Made by a program: the position numbers and the translations under genes | In this document: piece after piece, positions 9,217 through 30,650 of the stretch | How positions within the stretch are numbered: position 1 is the stretch's first letter | How the letters are laid out: the number at the start of each line of letters is the position of its first letter | Assembly: GCA_001789205.1 (NCBI GenBank) | Contig: MFYT01000039.1 | Location: 85,295-149,294, forward strand | Source: Candidatus Raymondbacteria bacterium RIFOXYA2_FULL_49_16 | GTDB lineage: Bacteria; Fibrobacterota; OXYB2-FULL-49-7; XYB2-FULL-49-35 | DNA: 64,000 nucleotides | Direction: 5' to 3' | The notes under the pieces: generated by a model | Databases searched by the model: none | Told to the model about the DNA's origin: nothing | Seen by the model: the letters and a program-made list of their open reading frames with translations, nothing else

Positions 9217-9528
9217 TTATTTCTGTTTCCTCAACAAATGGTCTTTCTTTCTCTGTTCCGCAGTCTCGATTTCCTTAACAGGTGTTTTCTGAGTCTTCTT
9301 GGTAAAAGCATGCGCTAATACAAGAAAGTTTCCCGCTTCGAAAAAGCCCAGGAAACGGAAAATATCTCCTCCATATTCTACCCGAACCTCCCATAAACCA
9401 CTAGTCCCTTCCATTTTCTCAAAAAATTTGCCGGGAACCCTTTCGAAATTACGGACAATGTCAAACACATAAAGGCACTTTTCCTGTTGTTCACGGTGTA
9501 AGCTGTCAATAAAAATCTTGACCGGCAT
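9217..9528 (-). CDS. Type II toxin, RelE/ParE superfamily (phage Gp49-like / HigB-like)
   Basis: 103 aa. Motifs 'LWEVRVEYGGDIFRFLGFF...FLVLAHAFTKKTQKTPVKEIETAEQR' are characteristic of the DUF891/Gp49 killer proteins encoded upstream of XRE antitoxins. Confidence 0.65.
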   Translation of the reverse strand: MPVKIFIDSLHREQQEKCLYVFDIVRNFERVPGKFFEKMEGTSGLWEVRVEYGGDIFRFLGFFEAGNFLVLAHAFTKKTQKTPVKEIETAEQRKKDHLLRKQK

Positions 9529-9741: not shown

Positions 9742-10719
9742 CTATTTTTTTCGCGCAACCTCGGACGGGAGCATGCCGAACCGGTGCCTGAAGAGTTTGG
9801 CGAAATACGATGAATGGTTGATGCCAACGCGATAGTGGACCTCGGTCACATTCATGTCCGTGGTCTTCAGTAATTCCATGGCCTTGTCGATCCGGAAATC
9901 ATTCAAATATTGGATGAAATTCGTTCCCGTGTCTTTCTTGAAAATCTTGCCCACGTAATCCTCGCTTAGGCCCGCGAAGCGCGCAAGGTCAGAGAGGGAA
10001 ATTTCCTCGGCATAATGGTCGCGGATGCAGGCCATGGCCTTGTTGGTCACAGCGCTGAACTGCTTTGGCACAACAGGGACTTGTTTTTTTCTTTTCCAGC
10101 GCAGCAAAATAGCAATGAACGCAATGACTGTGGCTGCCACAGGTATGGCCTTTGACCAGGGGATTTTGTGCTGTTTGGGCGCAGTTGTTAGAGGCGCCAG
10201 GGAGTCTCCTGGTACACTATCCGAAGTCTTGAGCGCGATCATGTCTATTTTAGCGCCAACCTCTTTGACTCTAAGAGAAAGCAGATGTTTTCCAAGTTTT
10301 TCAACAATGAAATATGGGGTATTTTTATGGCAGCCGTCGCCGCAGCTTACCTTGGTGGCCCATTGCCATGAGTCCTTTTTATAAAAATAGAGCCCATCTG
10401 TGTAATCTGGATTGTCCGGATTTTTGTTATCAAGCGTGACAAATACCCCGTTATCTCCTGGATTTGTTGCCCAAGTCCTTAAAAAAAGGTAATAGGTGTC
10501 AGCCACAGGCATATCGATGGTGTATTCAATTCTGCCCCTGCTTTCGTAGATGCCGGCAGAAACAATGTATTTTCCTGACGAGGCGTTTTTATACGCGCGT
10601 TCAATGGCCCACCCTGAATTATCGATTCGATTGTAGGTTTCAGCTTCAATGAACAGAGAATTTGTGTCCACGGCATGCAAGACACTGCAAGCAATGAAAA
10701 CGCAGGAAATTACCTTCAT
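9742..10719 (-). CDS. Membrane-anchored AraC-family regulator with N-terminal carbohydrate-binding-module-like sensor domain
   Basis: Signal peptide. 'FIEAETYNRIDNSGWAIE...SGKYIV' resembles CBM6/35-like galactose-binding folds. TM 'AATVIAFIAILLRW'. C-terminal AraC HTH 'MNVTEVHYRVGINHSSYFAKLFRHRFGMLPSEV'. Confidence 0.7.
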   Translation of the reverse strand: MKVISCVFIACSVLHAVDTNSLFIEAETYNRIDNSGWAIERAYKNASSGKYIVSAGIYESRGRIEYTIDMPVADTYYLFLRTWATNPGDNGVFVTLDNKNPDNPDYTDGLYFYKKDSWQWATKVSCGDGCHKNTPYFIVEKLGKHLLSLRVKEVGAKIDMIALKTSDSVPGDSLAPLTTAPKQHKIPWSKAIPVAATVIAFIAILLRWKRKKQVPVVPKQFSAVTNKAMACIRDHYAEEISLSDLARFAGLSEDYVGKIFKKDTGTNFIQYLNDFRIDKAMELLKTTDMNVTEVHYRVGINHSSYFAKLFRHRFGMLPSEVARKK

Positions 10720-10745
10720 CCTGGAATTTCCTCTATTAATTCATC
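10648..10745. repeat. 98-bp direct repeat copy 1 (5' end of the AraC gene plus its upstream region), about 95% identical to 25231-25328
   Basis: Aligned by eye: 'aatgaacagagaatttgtgtccacggcatgcaagacactgcaagcaatgaaaacgcaggaaattaccttcatcctggaatttcctctattaat' against the copy at 25231, with about 5 mismatches. Confidence 0.8.
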
Positions 10746-11993
10746 CTCAAAAATGCGTGAAAAAATGCCTTTTCCCTTCTTAAAAATAATATTTCTCCTC
10801 TGGAACCATGTATAAAGAAAAGAATAAAATCTTCTCCGTGAATACCGCCCTAAAAGTATATTATTCACGGGATGCCGAAATCGATTCAAAAAGTACGGTT
10901 TTCATTCGAGGAAACGGGCCTAACCCACTTTGGCGGGATGTGGCTTATTCAGAGTTTTTGCAAGTTGCTCGGTTTACGCCAGCGTCTTTACGATTATGTT
11001 CGACGTCCCCAAAGAAACCACTTTTACAGTTCCACCGAGTTCATTCTGGCGTTGCTTTATTCCATAATCATGGGACTTCGACGTATCAACAAGACTGATA
11101 TTCGATTTGGACTCTACGGTTATAGTCATTTACGGGGAGCAGCAGAAAGGGGCTGTTGGATACAATCCGAAGAAGCCCGGACGGAGGTCCTATCATCCGC
11201 TTCTATGTTTCGAGGCAAATTTTCAGGAATTCTGGCACGGCAGTCTTCGTCCTGGGAACACAGTGGCCATGACAGGAGCGATACCGTTCATTCGGCGGTG
11301 TCTGGAGAAAGTTTCTTCCACGATATCACGGAGCCGGATACGGTTTCGTATGGACTCTGGTTTTTATTCCAACCGCATCACCAACTATCTGGACGCGCTG
11401 GGATGCGGTTATGTCATTGTCGCCAAGGAATACGCGACCATCAAAGCGCCATGCGTACGCATGCCGGTTCAAAAAGCTCGGCAATGGGTGGGAGGCCGGA
11501 GAATTCTGGGAGAAAGTTCGGCATGTGGACAAGAAAGAGCGCCGTTTCGTTGTGGTGCGACGTCCCATTCCTTCCGACGAGGAGGAGAACCGGCAACTGA
11601 CCTTGTTTAAGCACCAGAAATATGTGTATCATGTTTTCGTGACCAATCTACCGATCAGTCCATGGCGAGTGTATCTGTTTTACAGTCCGCGAGCAACCAT
11701 CGAGAAAAACATACGGGAACTCATGTACGATTACCCCTTGGGCAAGATACCGACGAAAGATTGGACGGCAAATGTGGCGTTCTTCCAGTTGGTTTTGTTT
11801 GCGGCAAATATCGCTCACTGGTTCAAACGCCTGTGTTTGCCCGAGGATTATCACTACCAGAAGGAATTTCTTCAGGCATTCAAAACAATCGAAGGGTTAC
11901 GGTTACCAGGAAATTTTCGAATTTGCAAAAGACCCGAGAGGTCTCTCTCTATGAAAGACCCGAGAAAATAAGTGTTTTCACGCATTTTTGAGG
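10745..11993 (+). mobile_element. IS1380-family-like insertion sequence (about 1.25 kb) with 19-bp terminal inverted repeats and a frameshifted transposase
   Basis: Left inverted repeat CCTCAAAAATGCGTGAAAA (10745-10763) is the perfect reverse complement of the right one TTTTCACGCATTTTTGAGG (11975-11993). The interior encodes a DDE transposase in three frames. Confidence 0.7.
10872..11971 (+). pseudogene. DDE transposase (IS1380/IS4-like), disrupted by at least two frameshifts
   Basis: Three overlapping ORFs (10872-11600, 11107-11610, 11411-11971) together reconstruct one transposase. Contains 'GYNPKKPGRRSYHPLLCF', 'FRMDSGFYS', 'VVRRPIPSDEE...HVFVTNLPISPWRVYLFYSPRATIEKNIRELM'. Confidence 0.7.
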
Positions 11994-12307
11994 TTGATAT
12001 GATGTGACACGGTTGAGCGGGAAAGTTTCAATTGGTTGCATGCGCACGTAAAGGCCTTTTCAATCCCTTGGCAGCAGGATTCGCCAGCCTTTTTTTTCTC
12101 AAATCAGGGGTCTTTGCACCGTAAGAAATAATACGTGTGCAGCGCATCATGCACGATCGCAACAGGGATGAAGCCCTTGATTTCATTATCGGCTGTATCG
12201 GCACGAAGGTAAGGGAGATACTTAACAAACCCCCCTGAAAGCCCGTGTTCAAGCTTCCCGCTTCGGGAAGGAGAATCAGAAGGCCGATGCAGTAACGGCG
12301 TCTAACA

Positions 12308-12970
12308 TTAGGAACATGTTAAATTTCCATCCACAATTTTCACCGTTCGTTGCGCCAATTTCGCAATATTAGGGTCATGGGTTATCATTACAACAGTCGT
12401 GCCTGCCGCATGCTGGAGCTGTATGATATGCATCACCTCTTTCCCGGTATCAGGGTCGAGATTTCCCGTCGGCTCATCAGCGAGAATAAGCCGCGGCTTT
12501 TTGACCAGGGCACGCGCAAGAGCGACCCGTTGTTGCTGCCCTATGCTTAACTCGGACGGCAGATGGTCTTTTCTGTCGGTCAGGTCGACTTCCTCAAGAA
12601 TACTCTCGATGCTTTGTGTACTCGTCAATTCTTTGTTTGCAAGAGAAAGTCCTACGCTGACATTTTCGAACACTGTCAAATAGGGTACCAGATTAAACGA
12701 TTGAAAAACGAACCCGACGCTAGACCCACGCCACTGAGAGCGCTTTGTAATTTTCCAATCATAAATGGATTGATTTTGCCACATGACGGCGCCTTCATCG
12801 GGATGGCTCATTCCGCCAAGGGCAAGAAGAAGCGTGCTTTTGCCGCTTCCACTGGGGCCTACTATGGCCACAAATTCGCCTTCCTTTATTTCGAGGGAAG
12901 CTTTATCGAGCGCTTTTACCGTGCCATGTTTGCGTTTGAATATTCTGGATACGGATGCTGCTTTAAGCAT
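12308..12970 (-). CDS. ABC transporter ATP-binding protein (MacB/LolD-like)
   Basis: Walker A 'GPSGSGKST', signature 'LSIGQQQRVALARAL', Walker B 'ILADEPTGNLD'. Confidence 0.8.
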   Translation of the reverse strand: MLKAASVSRIFKRKHGTVKALDKASLEIKEGEFVAIVGPSGSGKSTLLLALGGMSHPDEGAVMWQNQSIYDWKITKRSQWRGSSVGFVFQSFNLVPYLTVFENVSVGLSLANKELTSTQSIESILEEVDLTDRKDHLPSELSIGQQQRVALARALVKKPRLILADEPTGNLDPDTGKEVMHIIQLQHAAGTTVVMITHDPNIAKLAQRTVKIVDGNLTCS

Positions 12971-12974
12971 TGGT

Positions 12975-14192
12975 TTAGTCCTCTTTCATGATGAGTGATG
13001 GATCTACCTTTGTGGCGCTGATAGCCGGAACGGCGCTGGCCAACAAAGCGATTACCGTTGAAATTATCATACTGTAAACAGCATATACGGGCAGGGGTAA
13101 AACGGGTACGCCGGCAATTCGAGGGCCGAGGATCGTTGCCATGGAGGAACCGAGAATGTATCCGATGATTCCACCGATAAGACCGATTATCAAAGCTTTA
13201 AGCAGGAACAATTTCAGAATCCATTGTGAGTTCGCACCCATGGCCATATAGATGCCTATTTCTCTGCGCCGCTCATACACGTTCGCGAACATATAGTTGG
13301 CAATGCTTGCGCCGCCCACCACCAGAATCACCACGAGCATGATAAGGGAAATACGTTTCATGACCGTGTTTGCTCTGATTTGCGTTGAAACAATCTGGCT
13401 GATTGTGACCACTTTGGCATCGGGAAGCAGTTTATTTATCTGCTGGATCAGCCCTGTTGAAATAGCCGAACAGCAGCCCACAATTTCGATGGAATGCAAA
13501 ACAGAATCTTTTCCGGAGAGTTTCTGTACGGTATGCAAATGAGCGAAAAGACGGCCGTCATCGACTGTCCCGGTAATCGGCAATATGGCTTCTGCGACAA
13601 ACCTCTTGCCGAGTACGGTCAATGAATCACCCTCTTTGATGGCAAGCGACCTGGCGATGTCTGCGCCTACAAGCATGGCATTGAGGGCAAGGTCTTCGAT
13701 GACTCGTTTGCGGACAAGAGTTTTTGTCGTGTCTGTAATACCAGGGATATTCGCAGTAATTCCGCAGCTTTGCGGCTTTGCAAATACCCCAAGGGTCGTT
13801 TGCCATGTCGCCTTTGACTTAAACTCGTTTCGAGGCAGAATTCCGGTTAGTGTGGCCTTCCGGGCTCCAACTTCAACTGGCATGCTGAATTTTGGCGAGA
13901 GGTTGTCAAGTCCCTGTATGCCTGAACTGGTCAGGATTGACACATAGCTTTCTGGGATTTCCGACTGTTGGAAATCCGCGCTATAGTAATCCTGCACAGT
14001 AGCATCCTTGGCCAGCAGTAGAATGTTCGCGCCCAGCGCGTCAAGTTCACCGGCAACGGCCTTTTCGGAATAATACGTGGTGCTTTGAATGGCGACCATA
14101 ACCGCAATACCGAGCGAGACCGCTGCCAGGCTTGATATCAATTGATTGTTGCGCTGGAATATCTCTCGCAAGACCAGCTGTTTAATATTCAT
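12975..14192 (-). CDS. ABC transporter permease, FtsX/MacB family
   Basis: About 400 aa. N-terminal TM, a large periplasmic domain, then three C-terminal TM helices (FtsX-like). Start chosen at 'MNIKQLVLREIF'; the ORF continues upstream to 14264. Confidence 0.7.
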   Translation of the reverse strand: MNIKQLVLREIFQRNNQLISSLAAVSLGIAVMVAIQSTTYYSEKAVAGELDALGANILLLAKDATVQDYYSADFQQSEIPESYVSILTSSGIQGLDNLSPKFSMPVEVGARKATLTGILPRNEFKSKATWQTTLGVFAKPQSCGITANIPGITDTTKTLVRKRVIEDLALNAMLVGADIARSLAIKEGDSLTVLGKRFVAEAILPITGTVDDGRLFAHLHTVQKLSGKDSVLHSIEIVGCCSAISTGLIQQINKLLPDAKVVTISQIVSTQIRANTVMKRISLIMLVVILVVGGASIANYMFANVYERRREIGIYMAMGANSQWILKLFLLKALIIGLIGGIIGYILGSSMATILGPRIAGVPVLPLPVYAVYSMIISTVIALLASAVPAISATKVDPSLIMKED

Positions 14193-14214
14193 CTTGTGAA
14201 ATTCCTTTTCAGGG

Positions 14215-14949
14215 TTATTTTTTCGGGCAGCAACTGCCGCCAGCGCATGATTGAAGGGCGGCAAGTATGTCCGTCTTAATTACTTTTCCCGTAAGAACTT
14301 TTCCTATTCTGCCGGGCGGTAACAAAACAACAACAGTTGCTTCAGCCAAAGGGGAAATCAATTGACACTGTTTTATGAATTCCTGGCTCCCTTGGGCCGA
14401 TGGGTCGGCCTTTATTGCAGCAACGAATTGCTTGTATTGGGGATCATTTGCAAATTCATTGACTCCTGCCCACGATTCTGCGCTGAATCTGGTTGATGCG
14501 TTTTGAAGCGCCACGAGCGTCACTTTTTGTTTCTGAAGAGGTTTAAGCGTTTTAAGCATCAGGTCCGATACACCCATGCTTTGCTTTAGCTGTTCGGCGG
14601 TTATGGTTTTGGGGAAGCCGCCGGTAACGACGCCATTCGGAGCAAGAACGAGCACTAAGGGCAGGTCACCGCCACTTTTGATGCCATAATTATCCGCAAT
14701 CTGCTTATTGGCCGGATCGCCCAATTTTGCTTTGTAAACAGATGCCTTTTTCGCAGATGATTTATTGAATGTTGTGATGGCGGAAGACATACTCGTGAGT
14801 GCTGCATTCTGCGCTTCGTAAAAGATCAGGCATAGAAATTTGCCTGCAGCAGCTGCCTCGCTGATGGCTGCATTCGCATTGGTAGGTACCGCATAGGAAA
14901 CGGTCCCAAGCATGCATAACACAAATAGTTTGAACATCAACTTTTTCAT
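14215..14949 (-). CDS. Hypothetical secreted protein with a Cys-rich C-terminus (CAGGSCCPKK), first gene of the ABC operon
   Basis: Signal peptide 'MKKLMFKLFVLCMLGTVSYA'. No recognisable catalytic motif. Possible thioredoxin-like fold. Confidence 0.4.
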   Translation of the reverse strand: MKKLMFKLFVLCMLGTVSYAVPTNANAAISEAAAAGKFLCLIFYEAQNAALTSMSSAITTFNKSSAKKASVYKAKLGDPANKQIADNYGIKSGGDLPLVLVLAPNGVVTGGFPKTITAEQLKQSMGVSDLMLKTLKPLQKQKVTLVALQNASTRFSAESWAGVNEFANDPQYKQFVAAIKADPSAQGSQEFIKQCQLISPLAEATVVVLLPPGRIGKVLTGKVIKTDILAALQSCAGGSCCPKK

Positions 14950-14965
14950 GAATTTTCCTTTTCTT

Positions 14966-16030
14966 TTAATTATTTGCTGATGGAAACCAGTGGGTTGTAC
15001 GGTTTGCTATTCTCACCAGAGTCAACATGACCGGGACCTCAACCAGGACGCCAACGATTGTCGCCAACACCACAGGAGACGAGGTACCGAATAAAGATAT
15101 AGCTACGGCAACAGAAAGCTCAAAAAAATTGGACGCGCCAATCATACCGGCCGGTGCGGCTATATTGTGGCACAGTTTTAATTTTTTGCTACCAAGGTAA
15201 GCGATGAAGAAAATCAGGAAAGTCTGGATTGTCAACGGAATAGCGATTAGAACAATATGCAAGGGCTTGTTTACAATAACATTCCCCTGGAAAGAGAAAA
15301 TGATAATTAGGGTCAGCAGGAGACCGCCAATCGTCGCATTGTTGAACTTTTTAATAAATATGTTGATGAAATACTCTTCTCCTTTTGCCTTAATGACGCT
15401 TGTCCTGGTCAGTATTCCTCCCACCAACGGAATCACTACAAAAAGCAGAACAGACATTAATAATGTGGCCCAGGGAATGGTTATTCCACCGATTCCAAGC
15501 AGCAGTGCAACGATCGGGGTGAATGCAAACAAAATAATGAGATCGTTGGTTGCCACCTGAACAACCGTATAGGCTGGATTTCCCCTTGTCAAATGACTCC
15601 ACACGAAAACCATGGCCGTGCACGGCGCTGCACCCAGAAGAATTGCTCCTGCAAGATATTCCTTGGCAAGATAGGCCGGAATCAATGCCTTAAAAATTAC
15701 AAAAAAGAAGAACCAGGCTATTGCATACATGGTAAAGGGCTTGATTAACCAATTAGTCACCCACGTTATATACAGCCCCTTTGGATTTTTTCCCACATTC
15801 TTTATGCTAGCAAAATCGACCTTCATCATCATGGGATAAATCATAAGCCAAATCAGGATCGCAATCGGAATGGAGACATTAGCATATTCAAATTGGCCTA
15901 GAAAGGCGGGGATGCCCGGTAAAAACTTGCCGATGAGCACACCGGTTATCATGCAAAGGATGACCCAAAGTGTCAGATACTTTTCAAAGAAACCAATACC
16001 CACGGTTTTATTTTCCGCCATACGTTTCAA
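14966..16030 (-). CDS. acr3: Arsenite efflux transporter, ACR3 family
   Basis: 354 aa and 10 TM. ACR3-type N-terminus 'GIGFFEKYLTLWVILCMITGVLIGKFLPG', with the conserved Cys in TM4 context 'LLGAAPCTAMV'. Confidence 0.8.
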   Translation of the reverse strand: MKRMAENKTVGIGFFEKYLTLWVILCMITGVLIGKFLPGIPAFLGQFEYANVSIPIAILIWLMIYPMMMKVDFASIKNVGKNPKGLYITWVTNWLIKPFTMYAIAWFFFFVIFKALIPAYLAKEYLAGAILLGAAPCTAMVFVWSHLTRGNPAYTVVQVATNDLIILFAFTPIVALLLGIGGITIPWATLLMSVLLFVVIPLVGGILTRTSVIKAKGEEYFINIFIKKFNNATIGGLLLTLIIIFSFQGNVIVNKPLHIVLIAIPLTIQTFLIFFIAYLGSKKLKLCHNIAAPAGMIGASNFFELSVAVAISLFGTSSPVVLATIVGVLVEVPVMLTLVRIANRTTHWFPSANN

Positions 16031-16046
16031 GACTCCTTTCCACGGT

Positions 16047-16490
16047 TTATAGGGTATTCAAAATATCCGGAAGCTTTTCCACAAATCCTCGAATCTCGTC
16101 CCGGACCCTGCTATAATGGATGAGCGCTTCCTCTTCTGTTTTGGCGTTTTTGGCCAGGGAAGGGGGATCGTCAAACCCCATGTGCATATGTCTGGCTTTA
16201 CCGGGAAAAAAGGGGCACGCCTCGCGCGCATTATCACACAAGGTAATTACGTAATCAAAGGGGACAGACATAACTTCGGTCATGTCCTTTGACCGTTGAA
16301 GCGATATGTCAATTCCATTTTCCGCCATTGCACGAACGGCACGGGGATCGAGGCCGTGTGCCACGACGCCAGCGGAATAGGGTTCAATTGACTCTCCTTT
16401 CAGGTGGCGCGCAAGACCTTCTGCCATCTGGCTCCGGCAGGAATTTCCAGTACAGAGAAACAGTATTTTTATCTTTTTGGTTTCGGGCAT
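16047..16490 (-). CDS. arsC: Arsenate reductase, LMW-PTP (thioredoxin-coupled) type
   Basis: P-loop 'ILFLCTGNSCRSQMAEG'. Start taken at 'MPETKKIKILF'. Confidence 0.75.
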   Translation of the reverse strand: MPETKKIKILFLCTGNSCRSQMAEGLARHLKGESIEPYSAGVVAHGLDPRAVRAMAENGIDISLQRSKDMTEVMSVPFDYVITLCDNAREACPFFPGKARHMHMGFDDPPSLAKNAKTEEEALIHYSRVRDEIRGFVEKLPDILNTL

Positions 16491-16825
16491 ATGTTGTCCT
16501 TGATACTTTTTGGAATGCGCACCCCGCAGCACGAATCCTTGTCAACGCAGCGGCCAAGATGGTTTGAAAGCCATTCCAGGATACTTTTGACAGCCGGGGT
16601 TGTTCCCTTCTTTGCCAGTTTATAGTAAATCCATTTTTCATCCCTGCGGCTTTCCACCAGACCTGCGGCCTTAAGTATGCTCATGTGCTTTGATACGGTC
16701 GAAGGCGCAAGCTTCAGGAACTCCACAATCTGGCACACGCACACTTCACGGCCACAAAGCACCATCAGGGCCTTGATCCTGTTTTCATCAGAGAGCGCTT
16801 TGGCTATTGAAACAATTTCTTTCAT
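16469..16825 (-). CDS. arsR: ArsR/SmtB family transcriptional repressor
   Basis: Winged HTH containing 'ELCVCD'-like 'EVCVCQIVEFL...STVSKHMSILKAAGLV'. Confidence 0.75.
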   Translation of the reverse strand: MKEIVSIAKALSDENRIKALMVLCGREVCVCQIVEFLKLAPSTVSKHMSILKAAGLVESRRDEKWIYYKLAKKGTTPAVKSILEWLSNHLGRCVDKDSCCGVRIPKSIKDNICPKPKR

Positions 16826-16833
16826 AAATATCC

Positions 16834-17649
16834 TTATGATTTCTCTCCGTACACGGTAATACTTACTATCTTGGCGCTGCTGCGGACCTCTTTCAGGTCC
16901 TTTTCATTCATATATTGAAGCAACAAATCGTCTGGAATATCAATGTTCTTTTCGCTGCTTATGGATATATTTCCGAAACCGGCGTCTTTTATGATTTGAA
17001 GATATTCTTTCTTTGAAACCGCTCCTGAGATGCAACCCGCATACAGTTCCGCAACTGTTCTCAACTTTGCCGGAAGCTCACCTTCAATGACAATATCGGA
17101 AATGTTGAAATGCCCGTCTTTTTTTAATACCCGAATAATTTCTCCAAAGGCCTTCCTTTTATCGGGAACCAGGTTGAGCACGCAGTTACTGATCACCACA
17201 TCGGCGACAGCATCATCAACCGGAAGCTTTTCTATTTCACCCAGACGGAATTCAACATTATCATAGCCCATCTTTGCATTATTCTTTTTGGCTTTGCCTA
17301 TCATTTCTTCGGTCATGTCTATGCCAATCACATAGCCCGTCTCGCCGACCATGCGGCGAACGATAAAGCAGTCGTTTCCGGCGCCCGAACCAAGGTCAAT
17401 GACCGTTGCGCCCTTTTTGATTTTTGCCGATTCCACGGGTATGCCGCATCCAAGTCCAAGGTCCGCCTCGGGAACATACCCGTCGAGCTTTGAGTAATCC
17501 TGGCTGAACACGGTGTAATCAACCTCTCCGGATCCGCAACACCCCGAAGAGCAGCAGGAACTTTTCTTTGTTTCCGAGGCTTTTGCGATAGTGCCGTATT
17601 TTTCCCGTACCATTGTTTTGATTGAATCAGAACTCATTTTTACCCCCAT
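16834..17649 (-). CDS. arsM: Arsenite S-adenosylmethionine methyltransferase (ArsM-like)
   Basis: SAM-binding motif 'VIDLGSGAGNDCF'. N-terminal Cys cluster 'SSCCSSGCCGSG' and 'VISNCVLNLVPDK' are typical of ArsM. Heads the ars operon. Confidence 0.65.
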   Translation of the reverse strand: MGVKMSSDSIKTMVREKYGTIAKASETKKSSCCSSGCCGSGEVDYTVFSQDYSKLDGYVPEADLGLGCGIPVESAKIKKGATVIDLGSGAGNDCFIVRRMVGETGYVIGIDMTEEMIGKAKKNNAKMGYDNVEFRLGEIEKLPVDDAVADVVISNCVLNLVPDKRKAFGEIIRVLKKDGHFNISDIVIEGELPAKLRTVAELYAGCISGAVSKKEYLQIIKDAGFGNISISSEKNIDIPDDLLLQYMNEKDLKEVRSSAKIVSITVYGEKS

Positions 17650-17720
17650 TTATTATTTCGTTATTTCGACACATAACGAAATATACAAGATTCGGAAAGC
17701 AAAATCAAGCTCTCTGGTTC

Positions 17721-18881
17721 TTAGAACATTGCTTTCACCCTGAATTCAACCTTGTGCTTCGCAAGTTTTGAACCGTATTCGCTCTCCACGTCTCCGGCAA
17801 GGATGATATATCGGGCAGTGAAACCCATGTGCCGGAACCTCGTGTACGTTGCTTCTGCTCCGGCCATCAGGCTGCCATCCTGGATGTTCACAATAGCGTA
17901 GGCAGAGGGCGTCAGATAAACGATTGTGAACGGATCGGGGTGCGATGCTTTCAGATATAAATAGTTTGTCCTGGAAAACTGACCGCTTTCTCCGGCATGC
18001 AGATATTCCATGATGAATGTAGTGTTGAATGAGGCAAGATACCGTGTCCCTGCAACAGCCTCCCACTCAGCCCCTTCTTTAAGCGTCCTGGCATACTCGC
18101 CATGCACCTCCCATTCAGGCGATATGTTGCGGGAAAAATCCACCCCTGCTCTATAGGCAGACCTGCTGTCCCCGTACAAGCACACATCAATGTCCGTATT
18201 GAGCAGGAGAAAATACGCCTGCATTATTCCAGCAAAATTCTTATCCGGCAGGTAACCCTCATTAATCTGCCCGTACACCGGCAGTGCAGCCCCAGTGAAC
18301 GCAGCAGTGGCAAGTGATCCATCATAACTGCGGATGAACTCTGCTTCCGCAGCCCAGTACCCTTCAAGAGACGCGTCAATATCGTTAAGGTCCTTTGGTC
18401 TTCCTGCAAATGCAACCGGGTTGAATGCATACCCCTTGCCCCACTTGAACAGCTTCTTCCCGCCCATCACCGAGAACGCAGGCGCCGGGGAGTATTTTGC
18501 ATAGCACTCATACAAACGCGCGTCGTGGGTTAGGCTAGCGCTGGGACGCACATATCCGCTGCTCAGGACTCCGGCAGCTGTAGCAAGAAGTGCTGTGCGC
18601 TGAAACCGTGCCGAGCCCTCGGCCTTCATGTTGTATGCATCGGAATATCTCACATTGTCCTGTCCGTACTTCAATGCGTATATCGACGACTGCTGGTTGT
18701 ACTGGATGAGCGACGGCCAAAGTTCAATGCTTGCCGCCATTTCCAGGGGCTTTTTTTCCATTGCCGGAATATCGAATGAGTAGTCGTCCGAAGTCAGGGT
18801 ATCACCGGAAACTATGCCGCTCGTAAAAGTACAGGCCAATGCGCCGCACGTGGCAATTAAGCGCCAGAAGTCCCGGTTCAT
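17721..18881 (-). CDS. Hypothetical outer-membrane beta-barrel protein (last gene of the ABC/LolA-like operon)
   Basis: Signal peptide. Alternating hydrophobic pattern. C-terminal aromatic residue '...EFRVKAMF', typical of outer-membrane beta-barrels. Confidence 0.45.
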   Translation of the reverse strand: MNRDFWRLIATCGALACTFTSGIVSGDTLTSDDYSFDIPAMEKKPLEMAASIELWPSLIQYNQQSSIYALKYGQDNVRYSDAYNMKAEGSARFQRTALLATAAGVLSSGYVRPSASLTHDARLYECYAKYSPAPAFSVMGGKKLFKWGKGYAFNPVAFAGRPKDLNDIDASLEGYWAAEAEFIRSYDGSLATAAFTGAALPVYGQINEGYLPDKNFAGIMQAYFLLLNTDIDVCLYGDSRSAYRAGVDFSRNISPEWEVHGEYARTLKEGAEWEAVAGTRYLASFNTTFIMEYLHAGESGQFSRTNYLYLKASHPDPFTIVYLTPSAYAIVNIQDGSLMAGAEATYTRFRHMGFTARYIILAGDVESEYGSKLAKHKVEFRVKAMF

Positions 18882-18888
18882 CCCCTGT

Positions 18889-19626
18889 TTACTCCCTCAG
18901 TTCGCCGATCTTTGACATGTAGTTAATGCTGAATACCTCGTCGCTGAATTTCTTTCGCTTGATCTTCGCGTAGACCATTATAGATTTGTATCCCTTATAC
19001 AGCGGGCTGTCTGTTTCAATAACCGACGGCCGTTTAATGCCTGCGCCGAAATCCTTTGTTTCCTTGAAATACAGCGTTTTAATCAGCATGCCCGCTTCGG
19101 TCATGCACTCAATTTTAATTGGTAGCAATTCCTTTTTCGCAGCCCATAACCGTAATCGGTCATACGCAACGCTTCTTGTCCTCGCCTTTAGGGTAAACAA
19201 ATAGGTCCCTGCCGTATCCAGCATTTGCGCAACCTCGTACTCGGCTGAAAAATCGATACGCAGGATATCCGCGTTGTTGAACACGCCGCCGGTCGCGGAC
19301 TGCAGGCTTGTGATCCGCACGGGTTTTCCCACATTCGGGATATAGAGCCACATATTGTCGCCAAGCCGGAGCATGGAACGATCCTTGTCCGCAGGCGGCG
19401 AAAGAAAGACCCCGGCCACCTTGTCGTTGCCTTTTCTTACCATATAAAGCAAAAATTCTTTCTTTTTTCCATCAGGCTCCACATTGATCAGTTTCCGGTA
19501 CATTTCATATGAATCCGGTTCGAGGTTTCTGTCTATTTTCTGGAGCAATGCGGCCGGATCTTCTGCAAAAATAAGAATTGCGGGTAACAAAACAGCGATG
19601 ATGGTTATTGCATAACGTTGGATCAT
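18889..19626 (-). CDS. LolA-like outer membrane lipoprotein-sorting family protein
   Basis: Signal peptide. 'NMWLYIPNVGKPVRITSLQSATGGVFNNAD' matches the LolA_like/DUF4292-type proteins co-encoded with MacB-type ABC exporters. Paralog of the ORF at 29854. Confidence 0.6.
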   Translation of the reverse strand: MIQRYAITIIAVLLPAILIFAEDPAALLQKIDRNLEPDSYEMYRKLINVEPDGKKKEFLLYMVRKGNDKVAGVFLSPPADKDRSMLRLGDNMWLYIPNVGKPVRITSLQSATGGVFNNADILRIDFSAEYEVAQMLDTAGTYLFTLKARTRSVAYDRLRLWAAKKELLPIKIECMTEAGMLIKTLYFKETKDFGAGIKRPSVIETDSPLYKGYKSIMVYAKIKRKKFSDEVFSINYMSKIGELRE

Positions 19627-19642
19627 GGTCTATTCCTTTTCC

Positions 19643-20881
19643 TTACACGCTTTTCAGCGCTTTGATGGGTTCCAGTCTTGAAGCTTTATACGCCGGGTGA
19701 AGGCTGCCGAGAATGGAAACAACAATCACCACAAGAGAGACCACCACAACATCTTTAGGCGTCATGTGGGGTGAAAGGACAAAACCTTCCTTCATGCCAA
19801 AAGAGAATGTATAATGGGATACGCGGATGGCATTAACCGCCACAACACTTAGAATGGTACCGGCAAGAACACCAAACAGGCCAAGCAACCCTCCCTCGAC
19901 AATGAACATGGCGAGAATACGGCCCGGCAATGTACCAATGGCCGCCAGCGTCCCTATCTCACGGGTCCGCTCATAAACGGACATTATCATGACATCCATG
20001 ATGCTTATAAGAACTATCGCAATGAGCATTATCCGTATAAACACGGTCATGAGGTCGATCATTTTAGCAATATTGGCGAACGGAGAGAGTTTTTCCCAGG
20101 TGTGCAGTTCAAATTTCGGCATGCCTTTCGTGTTCTTTTCCTTATTTAAACGCTCTGTCAGCTGCTCAAAGACCTGATCCAGCCGGTTGAAATCCTTCAC
20201 ATGGACGGCAATCTCGCTGACTTCCGGTTCTTCCATGCGCAACAGTTCTGCTGCGTCCGTGATATGTATGTACCCATCACGCCCGCCCGGTCCGGGTGCA
20301 CTCTCAACAATGCCGCCCACGATGAATTGTTGGCCATTAACGGAACCATCTTTATTAGTCGCAATAATAACAACTGGAGCGCCGACAGTGATGTTTAAAC
20401 CTTTAGCCAAAAACTGAGGCACAAGTATTTGTCCCCGTCTAAGCTCTGAGCTGCCTTCCATGATGCGCTTTTGAAGGAGCGGGACCGTCTTAAATTCCTT
20501 CTCCGGGTCAATGCCGTAAAGCCGGAGGTTGGTAGTTTCGGTAAAGTTGCTTATTACGCCGCCCAATCTGATGCGTGTTGAGTAGGCCTCAACCTCCGGT
20601 ATTCCCTTGAGAATGTCCTCAATGATACCAACGCCATGCGGCATCATGTTCAGGTTCATGGGCACATTTTCAATAGAAACCACATACCCTTTTTTGTGTA
20701 TTTGCATCTGACCGAGCATGGCATCCGTTATCTGACCCACGATGAGCGACTTGTATGAACCGGAAGCGGCCATAAAAACCTGTACGGCGATGACGCCAAG
20801 CGCTATGAGTGCTCCGACAAGCAGTGTCCGGCGTTTGTAGCGCATTAAATTACGGGCTGCTATCTTGATGATTTCAAGCAT
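19643..20881 (-). CDS. ABC transporter permease, FtsX/MacB family
   Basis: 412 aa. N-terminal TM, periplasmic domain, C-terminal FtsX-like four-helix region. Confidence 0.75.
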   Translation of the reverse strand: MLEIIKIAARNLMRYKRRTLLVGALIALGVIAVQVFMAASGSYKSLIVGQITDAMLGQMQIHKKGYVVSIENVPMNLNMMPHGVGIIEDILKGIPEVEAYSTRIRLGGVISNFTETTNLRLYGIDPEKEFKTVPLLQKRIMEGSSELRRGQILVPQFLAKGLNITVGAPVVIIATNKDGSVNGQQFIVGGIVESAPGPGGRDGYIHITDAAELLRMEEPEVSEIAVHVKDFNRLDQVFEQLTERLNKEKNTKGMPKFELHTWEKLSPFANIAKMIDLMTVFIRIMLIAIVLISIMDVMIMSVYERTREIGTLAAIGTLPGRILAMFIVEGGLLGLFGVLAGTILSVVAVNAIRVSHYTFSFGMKEGFVLSPHMTPKDVVVVSLVVIVVSILGSLHPAYKASRLEPIKALKSV

Positions 20882-21578
20882 GGTTTGCAGCCCCTTTCTC
20901 CTGCTGGCCGGTCAGGATGCCGTCCTCTATGGTGTAAATGCATTCAGCCTCTCCGACGATTTTAGGGTCGTGGGTCGAAAAAATGAAGGTCGTGCTGAGT
21001 TCGTCGCGCATCTTTTTCATGAGGCTTAGAATCATATACGCGGTTTTATGGTCCAGATTGGCCGTGGGCTCATCCGCCAACACCAGCTTGGGGCTCGTCA
21101 CAAGCGCCCGCGCGATGGCCACCCGCTGTTTCTGCCCGCCGGATATCTGGTCCGGATATTTTTCGCTTTGATCGGCCATTTCAACAGCTTCCAGAAGGTT
21201 CAGCACAAGCTTCCGCCGTTCCGCCGCCGGAGTGTCCCGCACCATGACGAGTGGGTATTCCACATTCTCGTACACAGTGAGGATGGGCACCAGGTTAAAA
21301 TCCTGAAAAATGAATCCTATGTTGCCCCCCCTGAATTTAGCACTGTTGGTTCTATCAAGTGCCAAAACATTGGACCCGCCTACGTCGAGTCTTCCAGACG
21401 ATGGTTTGTCCAGACAACCGATAAGATTAAGAAGTGTCGTCTTCCCGCTTCCGGACGGCCCAATAAACGAGGTGATGGTTCCTGCCTCTATTGAGAAGCT
21501 GACGTCTTTCAGCGCCTGGACTGTTACTGTTCCAGTCTCATAAAATTTTCCCACGTTCTCAGCCTTAACTATTGTCAT
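20874..21578 (-). CDS. ABC transporter ATP-binding protein (MacB/LolD-like)
   Basis: Walker A 'GPSGSGKTT', signature 'ISGGQKQRVAIARAL', Walker B 'VLADEPTANLD'. Confidence 0.8.
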   Translation of the reverse strand: MTIVKAENVGKFYETGTVTVQALKDVSFSIEAGTITSFIGPSGSGKTTLLNLIGCLDKPSSGRLDVGGSNVLALDRTNSAKFRGGNIGFIFQDFNLVPILTVYENVEYPLVMVRDTPAAERRKLVLNLLEAVEMADQSEKYPDQISGGQKQRVAIARALVTSPKLVLADEPTANLDHKTAYMILSLMKKMRDELSTTFIFSTHDPKIVGEAECIYTIEDGILTGQQEKGAANHA

Positions 21579-21631
21579 GAAATATTTCCTTTTGTGTTAA
21601 ACATAATGCCGTTCATTTTGTTTCTTTAAGT

Positions 21632-22330
21632 TCAAAATCCAAAATACAACCCGAAATTATTTGTCAGCACCAGATAAACCCCGACCAGTATAAACAATAC
21701 CGCTGTCACTCGCCTCACCCACAATTCAATGATCGTCAGCTTGTTGAAAACAGAACCTACAAGGTGTGCTCCGAACGCCAACAACAGCGAAAAACCAATT
21801 ACCGGCAAGGCCGTGCCCACGCCATAAAGCACAGGCATTACAAGCGCTGAATTGTTTTTAATCGCAAGCGGGATAAGCCCTCCAAAGAAAAGACCGGCGG
21901 AAGTTGGACAAAAGGCCATTGCAAAAAGGACCCCCAGAATACCTGCGCCCCACACGCCGGTATTATCTATCCGCGCCTGGAGCCCCTGTGTCATCCCCTT
22001 TCCACCAAAGCCAAATCTGAACAGGTCGAGCAGAAGCACCCCCACTGCAAGGCAAACCGGCCCAATAATCTTACTCATGTTGTTCTGGAGAAAATTCGAT
22101 ACACCGGGAATTGTGAGCAGGCTTTTTATAACCAGCATGCCCACCGTAAGATAGGCAAGCGCACGGCCAAGCGTATAGAGCAATCCCGCGAAAAGGACTG
22201 TCCGCGTGGATCCCACACGCCTGCCCACATACGATATTGCCGCGATGTTCGTGGCAAGCGGGCAGGGGCTGATGGAGGTCAGTATCCCCAACCAGAGAGC
22301 GGCCCCCATGGCCACAAACGTTTCATTCAT
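21632..22330 (-). CDS. CcdA/DsbD_2-family transmembrane thiol-disulfide transporter-like protein
   Basis: 232 aa and 6 TM. Conserved membrane-embedded cysteines 'SISPCPLATN' and 'AFCPTSAG'. Confidence 0.55.
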   Translation of the reverse strand: MNETFVAMGAALWLGILTSISPCPLATNIAAISYVGRRVGSTRTVLFAGLLYTLGRALAYLTVGMLVIKSLLTIPGVSNFLQNNMSKIIGPVCLAVGVLLLDLFRFGFGGKGMTQGLQARIDNTGVWGAGILGVLFAMAFCPTSAGLFFGGLIPLAIKNNSALVMPVLYGVGTALPVIGFSLLLAFGAHLVGSVFNKLTIIELWVRRVTAVLFILVGVYLVLTNNFGLYFGF

Positions 22331-22881
22331 GACTTAAATTCCTTTTCAAACGCTTTAATCTCTTCACGGATGTATACCCTGAAAGCGTTCTCATCTCCCA
22401 GGAGTTCCCATATTTTTGCACAATTTTTCCAGCCCATCTCCTTCCCGTCTTTAACGCAAGAAAGAACAACGGACTTTGAATATAAGCTGTAATCCTTGGC
22501 AAAATGTTCGTTCTGCTTATCCTGAATGTTCAGCATCTTCCATTCCATGCTACCGCTCTTCAGTTCGTCCTTGAACGAAGCTTCGACCTCTGCGCGGGTA
22601 TATTTTTCAATCTTCTGGCACGAAGGGCACCGGTAACTTGTCATGAAATAATAGACGTATATCTTCCCGCCATTTTTCACCTGCTGTTTGGCAGATGCCG
22701 TATCGGTCTTTGCGGGGGTACTCTGCACGATCTTTTGTTTTGCCTGCGGCGCTGCGGTTTTGGGCGCTTCGGCAAACCCGTTGCTGCAACTGCAATTGGG
22801 AAGGCTGAACATCGTAATGCCGATAAGCATGATTGCAACCATTAGACTTTTTTCACTGTTGAACATACCATATCCTTTCAT
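22327..22881 (-). CDS. Thioredoxin-like protein (CxxC 'CPSC')
   Basis: Signal/TM, then the thioredoxin-fold motif 'YRCPSCQKIEKYT'. Overlaps the CcdA-like gene by 4 nt. Confidence 0.5.
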   Translation of the reverse strand: MKGYGMFNSEKSLMVAIMLIGITMFSLPNCSCSNGFAEAPKTAAPQAKQKIVQSTPAKTDTASAKQQVKNGGKIYVYYFMTSYRCPSCQKIEKYTRAEVEASFKDELKSGSMEWKMLNIQDKQNEHFAKDYSLYSKSVVLSCVKDGKEMGWKNCAKIWELLGDENAFRVYIREEIKAFEKEFKS

Positions 22882-22894
22882 TATTTTTAAAACC

Positions 22895-24190
22895 CTACAA
22901 GGTTCCATATATTAATCCGGAAATCGTCGCCATTATAACTACCAGCGAAATGTACGCCATGGTCTTTTTGATTCCCATTATGCTGTTCAGCACCAGCATG
23001 TTCTGCAGCGAAAGTGCCGGGCCTGCCAGCAATAGGGCCAATGCAGGGCCTTTGCCCATTCCGGCAGCCATGAGTCCCTGGAGAATGGGAACTTCGGTGA
23101 GCGTTGCAAAATACATGAACGCACCCACAACCGACGCAAGGAGATTTGCCCGCAGAGAATTGCCGCCAACGGCCGCGGTTATCCATTCGGAAGGAATGAT
23201 GCCTTCGTGACCAACGCGGCCGAGTGCAAATCCGGCAACGAGAACGCCGAAAAGCAGAAGTGGAAAGATCTGTTTTACAAATCCCCAGGTTGCAGAGAGC
23301 CAGTCACCAGCCTCGCCCTTGTCTGTACCTGTAATTACTGTAAGGCCCAGAATACCGGCAATAAACGCAATTATTGGTTGATGCGGGAACAAGAATGCGA
23401 GGACCACGGGTGATATTGTTGCTACTGCGACCTTCCACCATGGTATTTTCAGCCATGCTATTAAGGCCATGCCCAAACCAAGGGCAAAAAGGCCGGTGAT
23501 GGGCCACTTCAGCCCATAAATAAAGTGCCACGGGCCTGTTTCCTGGACTGGTTTGCCCCAGTTTGCAAAAACAAGTATGCCGATCATGGACGCAAAATAA
23601 AGCGCTGTCTGCCACAGGGGCCGGCCAGCTTCTGCGTCCGGCATGGCCATCTGGGCCGCGTTCTTCTGCGCTTCTTCTTTCCTGAAAATGAACTGCATTA
23701 TCAACCCAATGACAACGCTGAACCCGATTGCGCCAACCGCACGGGCCACTCCCATCTCAAGGCCAAGAATGCGGGCAGTTAAAATGATGGCCAGGACATT
23801 GATGGCGGGTCCGGAATACAGAAATGCTGTTGCCGGGCCAATGCCAGCGCCCATCCGGTATATGCCTGCGAAGAGAGGCAGCACGGTGCATGAACAGACC
23901 GCCAGTACTGTGCCTGAAACCGAGGCCACTCCATAGGCCAGGACCTTGTTCGCCTTTGCGCCCAGATACTTCATCACCGATGCCTGGCTCACAAAAACGC
24001 CTATTGCACCAGCTATGAAAAAGGCCGGCACCAGACATAGCAACACATGTTCGCGCGCATACCATTTTACAAGGTTCAGCGCCTCGGATATTGCATTGTT
24101 GAACCGGGGTGCATCAACAGGCAAATAATAGATGCCTATGAACAGCGCAACTACCCAGAATAGCGGTTTTAATTCCTTTTTCAGCAGCAT
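22895..24190 (-). CDS. ArsP-type permease (PF03773/DUF318 family), a putative organoarsenical/metal efflux permease
   Basis: 431 aa and about 8-10 TM. Cys pair in TM context 'VLAVCSCTVLPLFAGIY', analogous to the ArsP TPFcSCS motif. Confidence 0.6.
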   Translation of the reverse strand: MLLKKELKPLFWVVALFIGIYYLPVDAPRFNNAISEALNLVKWYAREHVLLCLVPAFFIAGAIGVFVSQASVMKYLGAKANKVLAYGVASVSGTVLAVCSCTVLPLFAGIYRMGAGIGPATAFLYSGPAINVLAIILTARILGLEMGVARAVGAIGFSVVIGLIMQFIFRKEEAQKNAAQMAMPDAEAGRPLWQTALYFASMIGILVFANWGKPVQETGPWHFIYGLKWPITGLFALGLGMALIAWLKIPWWKVAVATISPVVLAFLFPHQPIIAFIAGILGLTVITGTDKGEAGDWLSATWGFVKQIFPLLLFGVLVAGFALGRVGHEGIIPSEWITAAVGGNSLRANLLASVVGAFMYFATLTEVPILQGLMAAGMGKGPALALLLAGPALSLQNMLVLNSIMGIKKTMAYISLVVIMATISGLIYGTL

Positions 24191-24235
24191 GCGAGCAACT
24201 CTTTTCCTTTTGTTGCAACAGCGGCAATAGCTTCT

Positions 24236-24481
24236 TCAGTAATCTGAAATTGCAATAACCTTCTTTGCTTCTTCGAGCGATGGCACTTTGCCTGTTAATT
24301 TAACCACACCGTCGACAGCCAGGGCAGGGGTCATCATTACATTGAAGGCCATGATCTCGTTAATGTCCGTGACTTTGACCAGTTCATACTCGATCCCAAG
24401 CTCTTTTGCCGCCTGCTCCGCAACTTCTGCCAGTTTTTTGCATTTTGGGCACCCGGTGCCCAGAATTGATAGTTTTTTCAT
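24236..24481 (-). CDS. Small thioredoxin-fold redox-active disulfide protein (glutaredoxin-like, TM0996/MTH895 type)
   Basis: 81 aa with 'LGTGCPKCKKL'. This family is frequently paired with PF03773 permeases. Confidence 0.6.
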   Translation of the reverse strand: MKKLSILGTGCPKCKKLAEVAEQAAKELGIEYELVKVTDINEIMAFNVMMTPALAVDGVVKLTGKVPSLEEAKKVIAISDY

Positions 24482-24500
24482 GAAAACCTCTTTCTGTTAT

Positions 24501-24725
24501 TTACCAGCCCAGTTTTTCCTGGCCATTGCATGGCTGAACGATCTCCTCAACAGCTTTGTTCTTGCATAAGAGCTTGCATTTCAGGCAGCCTGAACAAAAA
24601 TAGAAATCAACCCAGGGCTTGTCTGTTTTATCCTCTTTGAAAACCGCCTTCTTTTCGCATAGTTCCAATACGTCGCACAGGTCGCAATTTGAACATATCC
24701 GGGGATTAATCATCGCGCGTTTCAT
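24501..24725 (-). CDS. Small Cys-rich ferredoxin-like protein (two CxxCxxC(x)nC clusters)
   Basis: 74 aa containing 'CSNCDLCDVLELC' and 'CSGCLKCKLLC'. Confidence 0.35.
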   Translation of the reverse strand: MKRAMINPRICSNCDLCDVLELCEKKAVFKEDKTDKPWVDFYFCSGCLKCKLLCKNKAVEEIVQPCNGQEKLGW

Positions 24726-24730
24726 GGTAT

Positions 24731-25048
24731 TTATCCTACTGATGCGAGCTGCTCTTTTGCCCTGTCATGGATGACCTTTTCAATGCACCCAAGAAACTGA
24801 AGGATGCACGGCACTTTGAGATGGTAAAAAACCATGGTCCCACGTTTGTCGTCAGTCACAATACCGGCGTTCTTGAGAACAGAAAGATGCTTGGATACTG
24901 TCGAGATATCATCCCCGACAAAGTCCGTCAGTTCGCAAACGCAATGCTCTCTCTCCACCAGCTTCTCAATTATAAGCAGGCGGGTAGGATGAGCCATAGC
25001 CTTTATAATATTCGCCCTGGCCTCGTATTTGTACATTACTGATGGCAT
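24731..25048 (-). CDS. ArsR/SmtB family transcriptional regulator
   Basis: 'AHPTRLLIIEKLVEREHCVCELTDFVGDDISTVSKHLSVLKNAGIV'. Confidence 0.75.
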   Translation of the reverse strand: MPSVMYKYEARANIIKAMAHPTRLLIIEKLVEREHCVCELTDFVGDDISTVSKHLSVLKNAGIVTDDKRGTMVFYHLKVPCILQFLGCIEKVIHDRAKEQLASVG

Positions 25049-25217
25049 AAGACTCCTTTGTTGGTTATTTGGTAAAATAGTAAAACAAGCAATTCATAAG
25101 CAAGTTTTTTGGTTCGCCGATACGTATTATATTACGGAAATGTTTAAACAGAACTTACAAATATTTAGCTTTTAAAATGAGGGCCTTGCCTTGGTGACCG
25201 ACCGGCAACTTTCATTT

Positions 25218-25301
25218 TCATAAGTAATTAATGAACGGAGAATTTGTGTCCACGGCATGCAAGACACTGCAAGCAATGAAAACGCAGGAAATTGCCTTCA
25301 T
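25218..25301 (-). pseudogene. 27-codon remnant of a transmembrane AraC regulator gene (5' end only)
   Basis: Minus strand encodes MKAISCVFIACSVLHAVDTNSPFINYL*. Nearly identical to the first 21 codons of the ORF at 9742-10719 (MKVISCVFIACSVLHAVDTNS). Confidence 0.6.
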
Positions 25302-25328
25302 TCTGGAATTTCCTCTATTAATCCATTA
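25231..25328. repeat. 98-bp direct repeat copy 2 (matches 10648-10745)
   Basis: Manual alignment gives about 95% identity in the same orientation as copy 1. Confidence 0.8.
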
Positions 25329-25452
25329 ATTGTGATAATTGTGAAAGTCATTAATAATTTAAAAATACAATAAAAGGCAGAAGGATTAAAACTTGCATTT
25401 TATTGATCGTGTGATTATATTTATACTGATCGATGAGTATGTAAGTCACTAT

Positions 25453-30645: not shown

Positions 30646-30650
30646 ATTGT

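Follow-up and report, generated by a model that had tools for sequence, protein, structure and literature searches.

A 97-nt direct repeat around a decayed IS1380-family element and a 17-gene arsenic/export array in Candidatus Raymondbacteria

How does a regulator gene come to have its first codons repeated some 14.5 kb away, on the far side of an insertion sequence and an arsenic-resistance array? This question is raised by a 64,000-nucleotide stretch of DNA (contig MFYT01000039.1, positions 85,295 to 149,294; hereafter the window, whose own numbering is used throughout) from Candidatus Raymondbacteria bacterium RIFOXYA2_FULL_49_16. A preliminary description, prepared from the letters alone, had noticed that the 5' end of a gene encoding a transmembrane AraC-family regulator recurs beyond a segment carrying an insertion sequence (IS), ABC exporters and arsenic genes, and had proposed either an island integrated by att-site duplication or the relic of a recombination event. 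The direct repeat has been confirmed, with coordinates differing by 1-2 nt from those first given: it comprises 97 nt, at 10648-10744 (copy A) and 25230-25326 (copy B), with 93/97 positions (96%) identical according to MAFFT and a repeat finder. Between the copies lie 14,485 bp (10745-25229) made up of the IS, a spacer and a 17-gene array, and the left end of this unit is the exact terminus of a decayed IS1380-family element. The 97-bp repeat is tentatively read here, at somewhat less than an even chance, as the flanking duplication of one old insertion event. The features on which the argument turns are as follows.

9742..10719, minus strand: intact gene for an AraC-family regulator of 325 aa (Pfam HTH_18 9e-21; also HTH_AraC)
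10648..10744: copy A of the direct repeat (97 nt), made up of codons 1-24 of the AraC gene and the 25 nt before its start, adjoining the IS left end
10745..11993, plus strand: decayed IS1380-family insertion sequence, 1249 bp (NCBIfam NF033539, Pfam DDE_Tnp_1_4, terminal inverted repeats)
11994..12307: 314-bp spacer from the right end of the IS to the array's 3' end, delimited from the sequence
25049..25229: right end of the putatively inserted DNA, the 181 bp upstream of arsR, ending ...CATAAGTAATT
25230..25326: copy B of the direct repeat (97 nt), a remnant of the AraC 5' end with the native upstream region still attached
25327..26079, plus strand: native divergent intergenic region and TetR gene (Pfam TetR_N)

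The two copies of the repeat differ at repeat positions 8, 65, 73 and 94, by transitions throughout, and share a 54-nt core without any difference, which occurs exactly twice in the window as against no occurrence expected from 100 dinucleotide-preserving shuffles. Copy A contains the signal-peptide end of the AraC gene. Copy B encodes the 27-codon remnant already quoted in the preliminary description, an open reading frame (ORF) running from 25301 to 25221 on the minus strand with the translation MKAISCVFIACSVLHAVDTNSPFINYL followed by a stop codon. The outer edges of the repeat are sharp, with similarity ending abruptly on either side, and both ends of the intervening DNA are directly touched by the repeat copies. 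Alignment of the DNA to the right of the IS with that to the right of copy B gave no score above shuffles, and neither did alignment of the AraC body with the DNA to the left of copy B, where no trace of the AraC body is found. A longer duplication split by the IS was ruled out, since homology beyond the repeat is absent in all comparisons. That the repeat might be a dispersed multi-copy element had been considered as well, and this has not been borne out: there are two copies in the window, and in a 33-mer scan covering 241 million metagenome records the only contig matched is from this very locus.

The element at the left junction has perfect 19-bp terminal inverted repeats, CCTCAAAAATGCGTGAAAA, at 10745-10763 and 11975-11993, which begin with CC. 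Base 10745 is base 1 of the terminal inverted repeat and copy A ends at 10744, so that the abutment of repeat and IS stands as first described. The inverted-repeat pattern has no further match in the window even with 3 mismatches allowed, and a search for a further copy of the IS, or for a surrogate end near 25229, found neither; a composite (two-IS) transposon was rejected, given a single IS copy with the pattern at 10745 and 11975 only. The model NF033539 (transpos_IS1380) is matched at positions 2-69, 135-255 and 268-384 of 419 by three ORFs in three frames. The transposase gene is thus a pseudogene, carrying 2 or more frameshifts and lacking ~65 codons. It reads on the plus strand toward the cargo, the left end of the IS facing the AraC gene and copy A and the right end facing the array. 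A 44-nt deletion within the IS (11395-11438; contig L019 at 1100/1101, JGI contig Ga0208374_1004563) is the sole difference from the window over 3.3 kb, and the contig matched in the 33-mer scan equals the window except for this deletion; in the population, decay of the dead element continues. An exact look-up of the 186-aa transposase fragment returned 7 contigs, every one with the genomic context seen here, and no match was obtained for the inverted repeat in viral contigs or for the IS in a blastn search against plasmids.

The arrangement recurs in the sampled population. The repeat is present in eleven contigs, all from one Candidatus Raymondbacteria population, whose assemblies (ENA, NCBI, JGI) were made independently from different samples. 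Five have copy A with the haplotype AACT and the flanks GGTTTCAGCTTC|..|CCTCAAAAATGC, between the AraC body and the IS end, and six have copy B with the haplotype GGTC and the flanks TCATAAGTAATT|..|TAATTGTGATAA, between the arsR upstream region and the TetR side. Hybrid haplotypes, variant arrangements and empty-site junctions were found in none of the 11. The structure is not polymorphic in the sampled population, where the 44-nt IS deletion is the sole polymorphism seen. Exact-protein look-ups for the AraC and TetR proteins, with 24 contigs each, gave an identical gene order in every case. They also trace the window to metagenomes from the Rifle aquifer and to the Candidatus Raymondbacteria metagenome-assembled genome GCA_001787835.1.

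On the right-hand side the repeat opens onto a conserved operon. The listed TetR reading frame begins with TTG at 25393, yet the true start is probably the ATG at 25453, 20 codons later, giving a protein of 208 aa; this start is favoured because homologues measure 204-208 aa. With it, the ancestral divergent intergenic region between the AraC and TetR genes would have been ~151 bp long, which is a normal arrangement. The operon follows the order TetR, DUF1302-like, MMPL, LolA-like (DUF1329) and DUF2147 (25393-31121). On long contigs of Chitinispirillaceae-like relatives (L014-L018), where the TetR orthologues are 75-83% identical, the operon has been kept together as a block, but the gene upstream of it differs from one contig to the next.

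Taken from left to right, the locus consists of the AraC body, a repeat copy, the IS with its cargo, the second repeat copy and the native upstream region with the TetR gene. This is the geometry of an insertion with a duplicated piece of its target, as the preliminary description had recognised. Three mechanisms give such a geometry: target-site duplication, att duplication and single-crossover integration. A joint made by a transposase explains the edge of copy A directly, since the repeat ends at the first base of the IS terminal inverted repeat. Because the repeat abuts the IS terminus, models without a transposase need either an additional IS-mediated deletion or a coincidence with a probability of ~3e-4, in which an unrelated IS happened to insert, somewhere in 14.5 kb, only a few bases from an existing breakpoint. 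The transposase moreover reads toward the cargo, which therefore lies on the side of the right inverted repeat (IRR), the side mobilised by ISEcp1/ISEc9. The explanation preferred here, though its probability stays below one half, is that the IS and the DNA on its right-end side were inserted as one unit, in the manner of ISEcp1, with an unusually long target duplication.

In such an event the ancestral locus would have held the AraC-like and TetR genes diverging from the ~151-bp intergenic region, with the two genes once adjacent, and the 14,485-bp unit, consisting of the IS1380-family element and a complete 17-gene transcription unit on its IRR side, would have landed there, IS and cargo arriving together. 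The IS left end would have been joined 25 nt upstream of the AraC start codon and the far end of the unit on the opposite strand, 97 nt deeper in the AraC gene, both joints being the work of the transposase. Repair of the two single-stranded gaps would then have copied the 97 nt on both sides, after which the IS would have decayed and the repeat copies would have diverged by four transitions. The 4% divergence of the copies and the heavy decay of the IS indicate that the event is old, and the ages of repeat and IS decay are mutually consistent. As to the length of the duplication, one specific route, although rather an unlikely one, would be one-ended action of the transposase on a surrogate right end of poor quality, the two strand transfers being uncoupled and 97 bp apart.

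Several observations weigh against this reading. The IS1380 family is reported to make duplications of 4-5 bp, not of 97 bp (PMC12116815). If the IS is taken by itself, the 5 bp flanking it, TTCAT and TTGAT, match at 4/5 positions and may be the decayed 5-bp duplication of a stand-alone insertion, which would uncouple the IS from the cargo; the match has been put down to chance, since an IS inserting on its own would again need the coincidence of position discussed earlier. At the other end, when the terminus of the cargo was aligned with the IS right end, the score did not rise above shuffles, so that no IS-end-like sequence is present at the cargo terminus, ...AAGTAATT, which lacks a 3' G, the nearest TGAGG being 47 nt inside the cargo. 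Composition does not set the segment apart from its flanks: GC content lies at 0.44-0.55 within it and is similar outside, and tetranucleotide correlation is 0.80-0.90 inside against 0.75-0.90 outside. The comparison of composition that had been proposed for the segment as an accessory one has therefore left its accessory status undemonstrated, with the proviso that a distinct composition is a supportive rather than a strictly defining trait of genomic islands. Finally, an empty site was found neither in the 24 plus 24 population contigs nor in more distant relatives, and in none of the relatives with the TetR operon does an AraC gene stand upstream of it. The insertion, like its mechanism, is consequently deduced from the anatomy of a single genome state. 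The failure to find an empty site is attributed to the extreme rarity of the AraC family and to the lack of a close enough relative in the collections searched: the family has only 5 full-length homologues among 5.8 billion proteins, all on short contigs with 0 adjoining a TetR gene, and two scans of species-representative genomes and one of metagenome contigs yielded no closer relative.

The locus may be compared with several known systems. ISEcp1/ISEc9, the best-studied member of the IS1380 family, moves itself together with the DNA adjacent to its right end by means of weak surrogate ends, with units of up to 36 kb demonstrated experimentally and a 3' G in the surrogate end reported as important (PMC12116815). 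The present unit is similar in having an IS1380-family element at one end with the left inverted repeat outermost, resistance-gene cargo on the right-end side downstream of the transposase, and a length of 14.5 kb that falls within the demonstrated range. It departs from those units in that the duplication around the whole is 97 bp rather than 5 bp, the cargo ends without a visible surrogate right end bearing a 3' G, the transposase gene has become a pseudogene and the host belongs to an uncultured candidate phylum. The cargo is furthermore transcribed toward the IS, which consequently does not supply its promoter.

A second resemblance is with the pattern termed insertion with long target duplication, in which unique repeats of 46-423 bp flank inserts of <20 kb across bacteria, with no established mechanism (PMC2853133). 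Repeat identities in the examples given by Furuta, Abe and Kobayashi (2010) include 384/412 and 44/46 (PMC2853133). The locus shares with these cases a unique repeat of >30 bp around an insert of <20 kb (here 97 bp and 14.5 kb), the absence of an integrase, the duplication of a gene end and a repeat identity in a similar range. Those inserts, however, carry restriction-modification genes and not arsenic/export genes, were defined as being without other mobile elements, whereas an IS1380-family remnant forms the left junction here, and were proven with empty-site genomes, while the present case is known from one genome state. An earlier source for the pattern is reportedly Nobusato et al. in 2000. 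Duplications of 8-514 bp are also on record for the DDE-type elements IS1549 and IS1634 (PMC2266710). As here, the direct repeats accompany a DDE-type IS and measure tens to hundreds of bp, but the elements belong to the IS1634 family rather than to IS1380, and their repeats flank the IS alone rather than an IS with 13 kb of adjacent DNA.

The alternatives have to be weighed against the same junctions. In a metagenome-assembled genome such as this, a mis-join at a short repeat has to be considered, particularly as one Logan contig (L009) breaks inside copy B, starting at window position 25264. A break within the repeat is nonetheless expected for a de Bruijn graph with k=31, the identical core of 54 nt is shorter than the read length, and both junction types recur with the same haplotypes and flanks in the 11 contigs, which differ in assembler and in sample. 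The structure is therefore no artefact of assembly, which as an explanation is extremely improbable. A route through homologous DNA is more credible, even if it too is improbable: DNA of a related strain, in which the IS and cargo already lay beside a piece of the AraC 5' end, would have entered as a circle or by transformation, through a single homologous crossover within the 97 bp (Campbell type) or through homology-facilitated illegitimate recombination, leaving homology on both sides. A single crossover with a circle yields exactly this geometry, the 4% divergence of the copies could then be that between donor and recipient and not drift after insertion, a closely related donor would fit the native-like composition, and many of the documented long-target-duplication cases come from naturally competent species. 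In such a donor, however, the cargo and the IS terminus must already have been fused to a truncated AraC 5' end, which only moves the origin of the junctions back by one step. Illegitimate joining does not account for the exact IS terminus at the junction, and neither a variant arrangement nor a hybrid haplotype occurs among the 11 contigs.

Less probable again is descent from two AraC genes, in which segmental duplication would have placed near-identical paralogues at both positions, the one on the TetR side later being deleted down to 24 codons and the IS inserting by chance 25 nt upstream of the surviving copy. Several transmembrane AraC-like paralogues do exist in the same 64 kb (6788-8620, 44732-46243 and 61001-63169), one relative has two members of the family in tandem, and the TTCAT/TTGAT match (4/5) around the IS would suit a stand-alone insertion. 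Under this scheme homology would be expected to continue between the DNA right of the IS and that right of copy B, which it does not; the duplication boundary and the IS insertion point must coincide within a few bases, and the DNA left of copy B retains nothing of an AraC body. The island of the preliminary description is the most doubtful of these three biological alternatives. A site-specific recombinase, encoded elsewhere or since lost, would have put a circle into an att site in the AraC 5' end, with an element-borne 97 bp restoring the reading frame in the style of SXT/R391 at prfC, and the IS would have reached the att boundary later. SXT/R391 elements integrate at the 5' end of prfC and rebuild the target gene, and they resemble the present locus in having direct repeats at both ends and in keeping a functional target 5' end while the relic stays with the old promoter. 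Att-bounded elements without an integrase exist, and attP and attB arms that were different from the outset would fit the four mismatches as the flanking repeats and the reconstituted gene 5' end fit integration. Unlike SXT/R391, the locus has no integrase, excisionase or transfer gene and has an IS terminus as one of its ends. The absence of an integrase from the segment, which had been noted before, extends to the rest of the window: Pfam and NCBIfam scans detected no integrase, recombinase, excisionase or relaxase in any sizeable ORF, and no tRNA gene is present. Since the repeat edge is the IS terminus, an island would further require that an IS happened to insert at the att edge or that the IS caused an additional deletion; the DNA right of the IS lacks continued homology, and composition gives no signal. 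The att-site reading has therefore not been sustained, the exact IS1380-family terminus at the left end indicating a joint made by a transposase rather than by a recombinase.

The cargo attributed to the preferred insertion of IS and adjacent DNA is one compact unit spanning promoter to terminator. All 17 genes (17/17) lie on the minus strand with gaps of <=72 bp and arsR as the first gene; the 181 bp upstream of arsR presumably hold the array's own promoter/operator, and the spacer beside the IS contains a terminator-like hairpin (12154-12137, minus strand). The genes are listed here from the distal end of the array.

12308-12970, minus strand: ABC ATPase, distal end of the array (Pfam ABC_tran 2e-37)
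12975-14264, minus strand: FtsX-type permease (Pfam FtsX 5e-18)
14215-14949, minus strand: orphan of 244 aa without a family match
14966-16030, minus strand: Acr3-type arsenite carrier (Pfam SBF 9e-37)
16047-16532, minus strand: ArsC of the low-molecular-weight (LMW) phosphatase type (Pfam LMWPc 1e-20)
16469-16825, minus strand: ArsR within the arsenic module (NCBIfam HTH_metalloreg 1e-23)
16834-17649, minus strand: ArsM-like S-adenosylmethionine (SAM) methyltransferase (Pfam Methyltransf_31 3e-42)
17721-18881, minus strand: orphan of 386 aa without a family, MacB-type export module
18889-19626, minus strand: LolA-like protein, MacB-type export module
19643-20881, minus strand: MacB_PCD/FtsX permease, MacB-type export module
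20874-21578, minus strand: ABC ATPase, MacB-type export module
21632-22330, minus strand: ArsG-family permease (NCBIfam ArsG 6e-83, aromatic aminobenzylarsenical efflux permease)
22327-22908, minus strand: ArsF-like protein (NCBIfam ArsF 6e-31, nitroreductase subunit)
22895-24190, minus strand: ArsP permease (Pfam ArsP_1 5e-73)
24236-24481, minus strand: small thioredoxin (Pfam Thioredoxin_3 1e-26)
24501-24725, minus strand: ferredoxin-like protein of 74 aa
24731-25048, minus strand: ArsR, first gene of the array (Pfam HTH_5 3e-13)

Profile scans gave the gene content that had been described between the copies, the ORFs first named CcdA and thioredoxin matching the NCBIfam ArsG and ArsF-like models. 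Together the genes at 21632-24725 look like a predicted detoxification set for organoarsenicals of the roxarsone/nitarsone type. The four-gene export module at 17721-21578, of an ABC ATPase, a MacB-type permease, a LolA-like protein and an orphan (~390-440 aa), recurs in an unrelated 156-kb contig (JGI 3300075153), where it adjoins genes for an ArsC-type phosphatase, an extracytoplasmic function (ECF) sigma factor and Metal_resist proteins, and in the contig of its closest homologue (L024) it adjoins an ArsM-like methyltransferase. This hints at an uncharacterised envelope export system functionally tied to metalloid resistance, and the recurrence of the module beside arsenic and metal-resistance genes marks the cargo as a coherent metalloid-resistance unit. 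A recent internal duplication of the two ABC modules was considered and rejected, the two FtsX-type permeases of the array being 24% identical and the 244-aa and LolA-like proteins unrelated.

The protein at the target site has an N-terminal signal peptide, an extracytoplasmic domain, one transmembrane helix and a C-terminal HTH_18/HTH_AraC domain. Conservation in the family alignment starts at IEAE, immediately past the repeat, and the N-terminal domain of the window protein matched no Pfam model; the Pfam annotation in the record of one homologue includes PF17829 (displayed as GH115_C). In the 71%-identical homologue on contig L011 the gene has been called without its N-terminus, and an in-frame upstream hydrophobic, signal-like stretch, GGIFSVVFIFFFIKALYGAPPEDVYIEAE, lies at 2340-2500 of that contig, overlapping the 3' end of a PMT-family glycosyltransferase gene. 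Similarity of this homologue to the window protein begins near the FIEAE/YIEAE motif at the inner edge of the repeat and its own signal-peptide region is unrelated to the repeat, for which reason it could not tell which repeat copy is ancestral. A second AraC family member (P0005) stands in tandem behind the first on L011.

Further ORFs of the window end in an AraC-type helix-turn-helix (HTH) domain; all of them (6788-8620, 44732-46243 and 61001-63169) are longer than the target gene and one has a CBM9 domain, which suggests a lineage-specific family of membrane-anchored one-component sensors. Directly downstream of the target gene, at 8821-9528, a Gp49-like (HigB-type) toxin gene and an HTH_3 antitoxin-like gene stand between it and the second AraC-like gene (610 aa). 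Toxin-antitoxin pairs of this kind are often tied to mobile or variable regions. Elsewhere in the window another direct repeat, of 56 nt and 79% identity, has been observed at 55767-55822 and 58219-58274, inside two adjacent large minus-strand ORFs (54163-56211 and 56300-58675) that are probably tandem paralogues.

For the regulator the consequence concerns its transcription. The AraC gene keeps only 25 nt of native upstream DNA and must therefore now be transcribed from within the IS, whose left end contains weak promoter-like hexamer pairs directed at it (candidate -35/-10 at 10889-10860 and 10814-10786), to be taken as predictions and not as proof of function. The relic of 27 codons has kept the native promoter side, which is directed into the arsR-led array.

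An IS-associated accessory insertion with a long flanking duplication is a pattern that is already known and poorly understood, and in other respects the locus is a routine insertion scar, fixed in one sampled population and with its mobility gene dead; its interest is modest unless the long duplication can be tied to transposition of the IS1380 family. Should that hold, the locus would be a natural record that connects insertion with long target duplication to the ISEcp1 way of mobilising neighbouring genes, and the first long target duplication credited to this family. Long target duplications have been catalogued since 2000 without an established mechanism, and here one junction is an exact IS end of the transposase type, which suggests a testable route in the uncoupled joining of ends during one-ended transposition. 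So read, the case shows a complete arsenic and organoarsenical resistance array entering the chromosome of Candidatus Raymondbacteria, through an insertion that left the target regulator gene whole but parted from its promoter.

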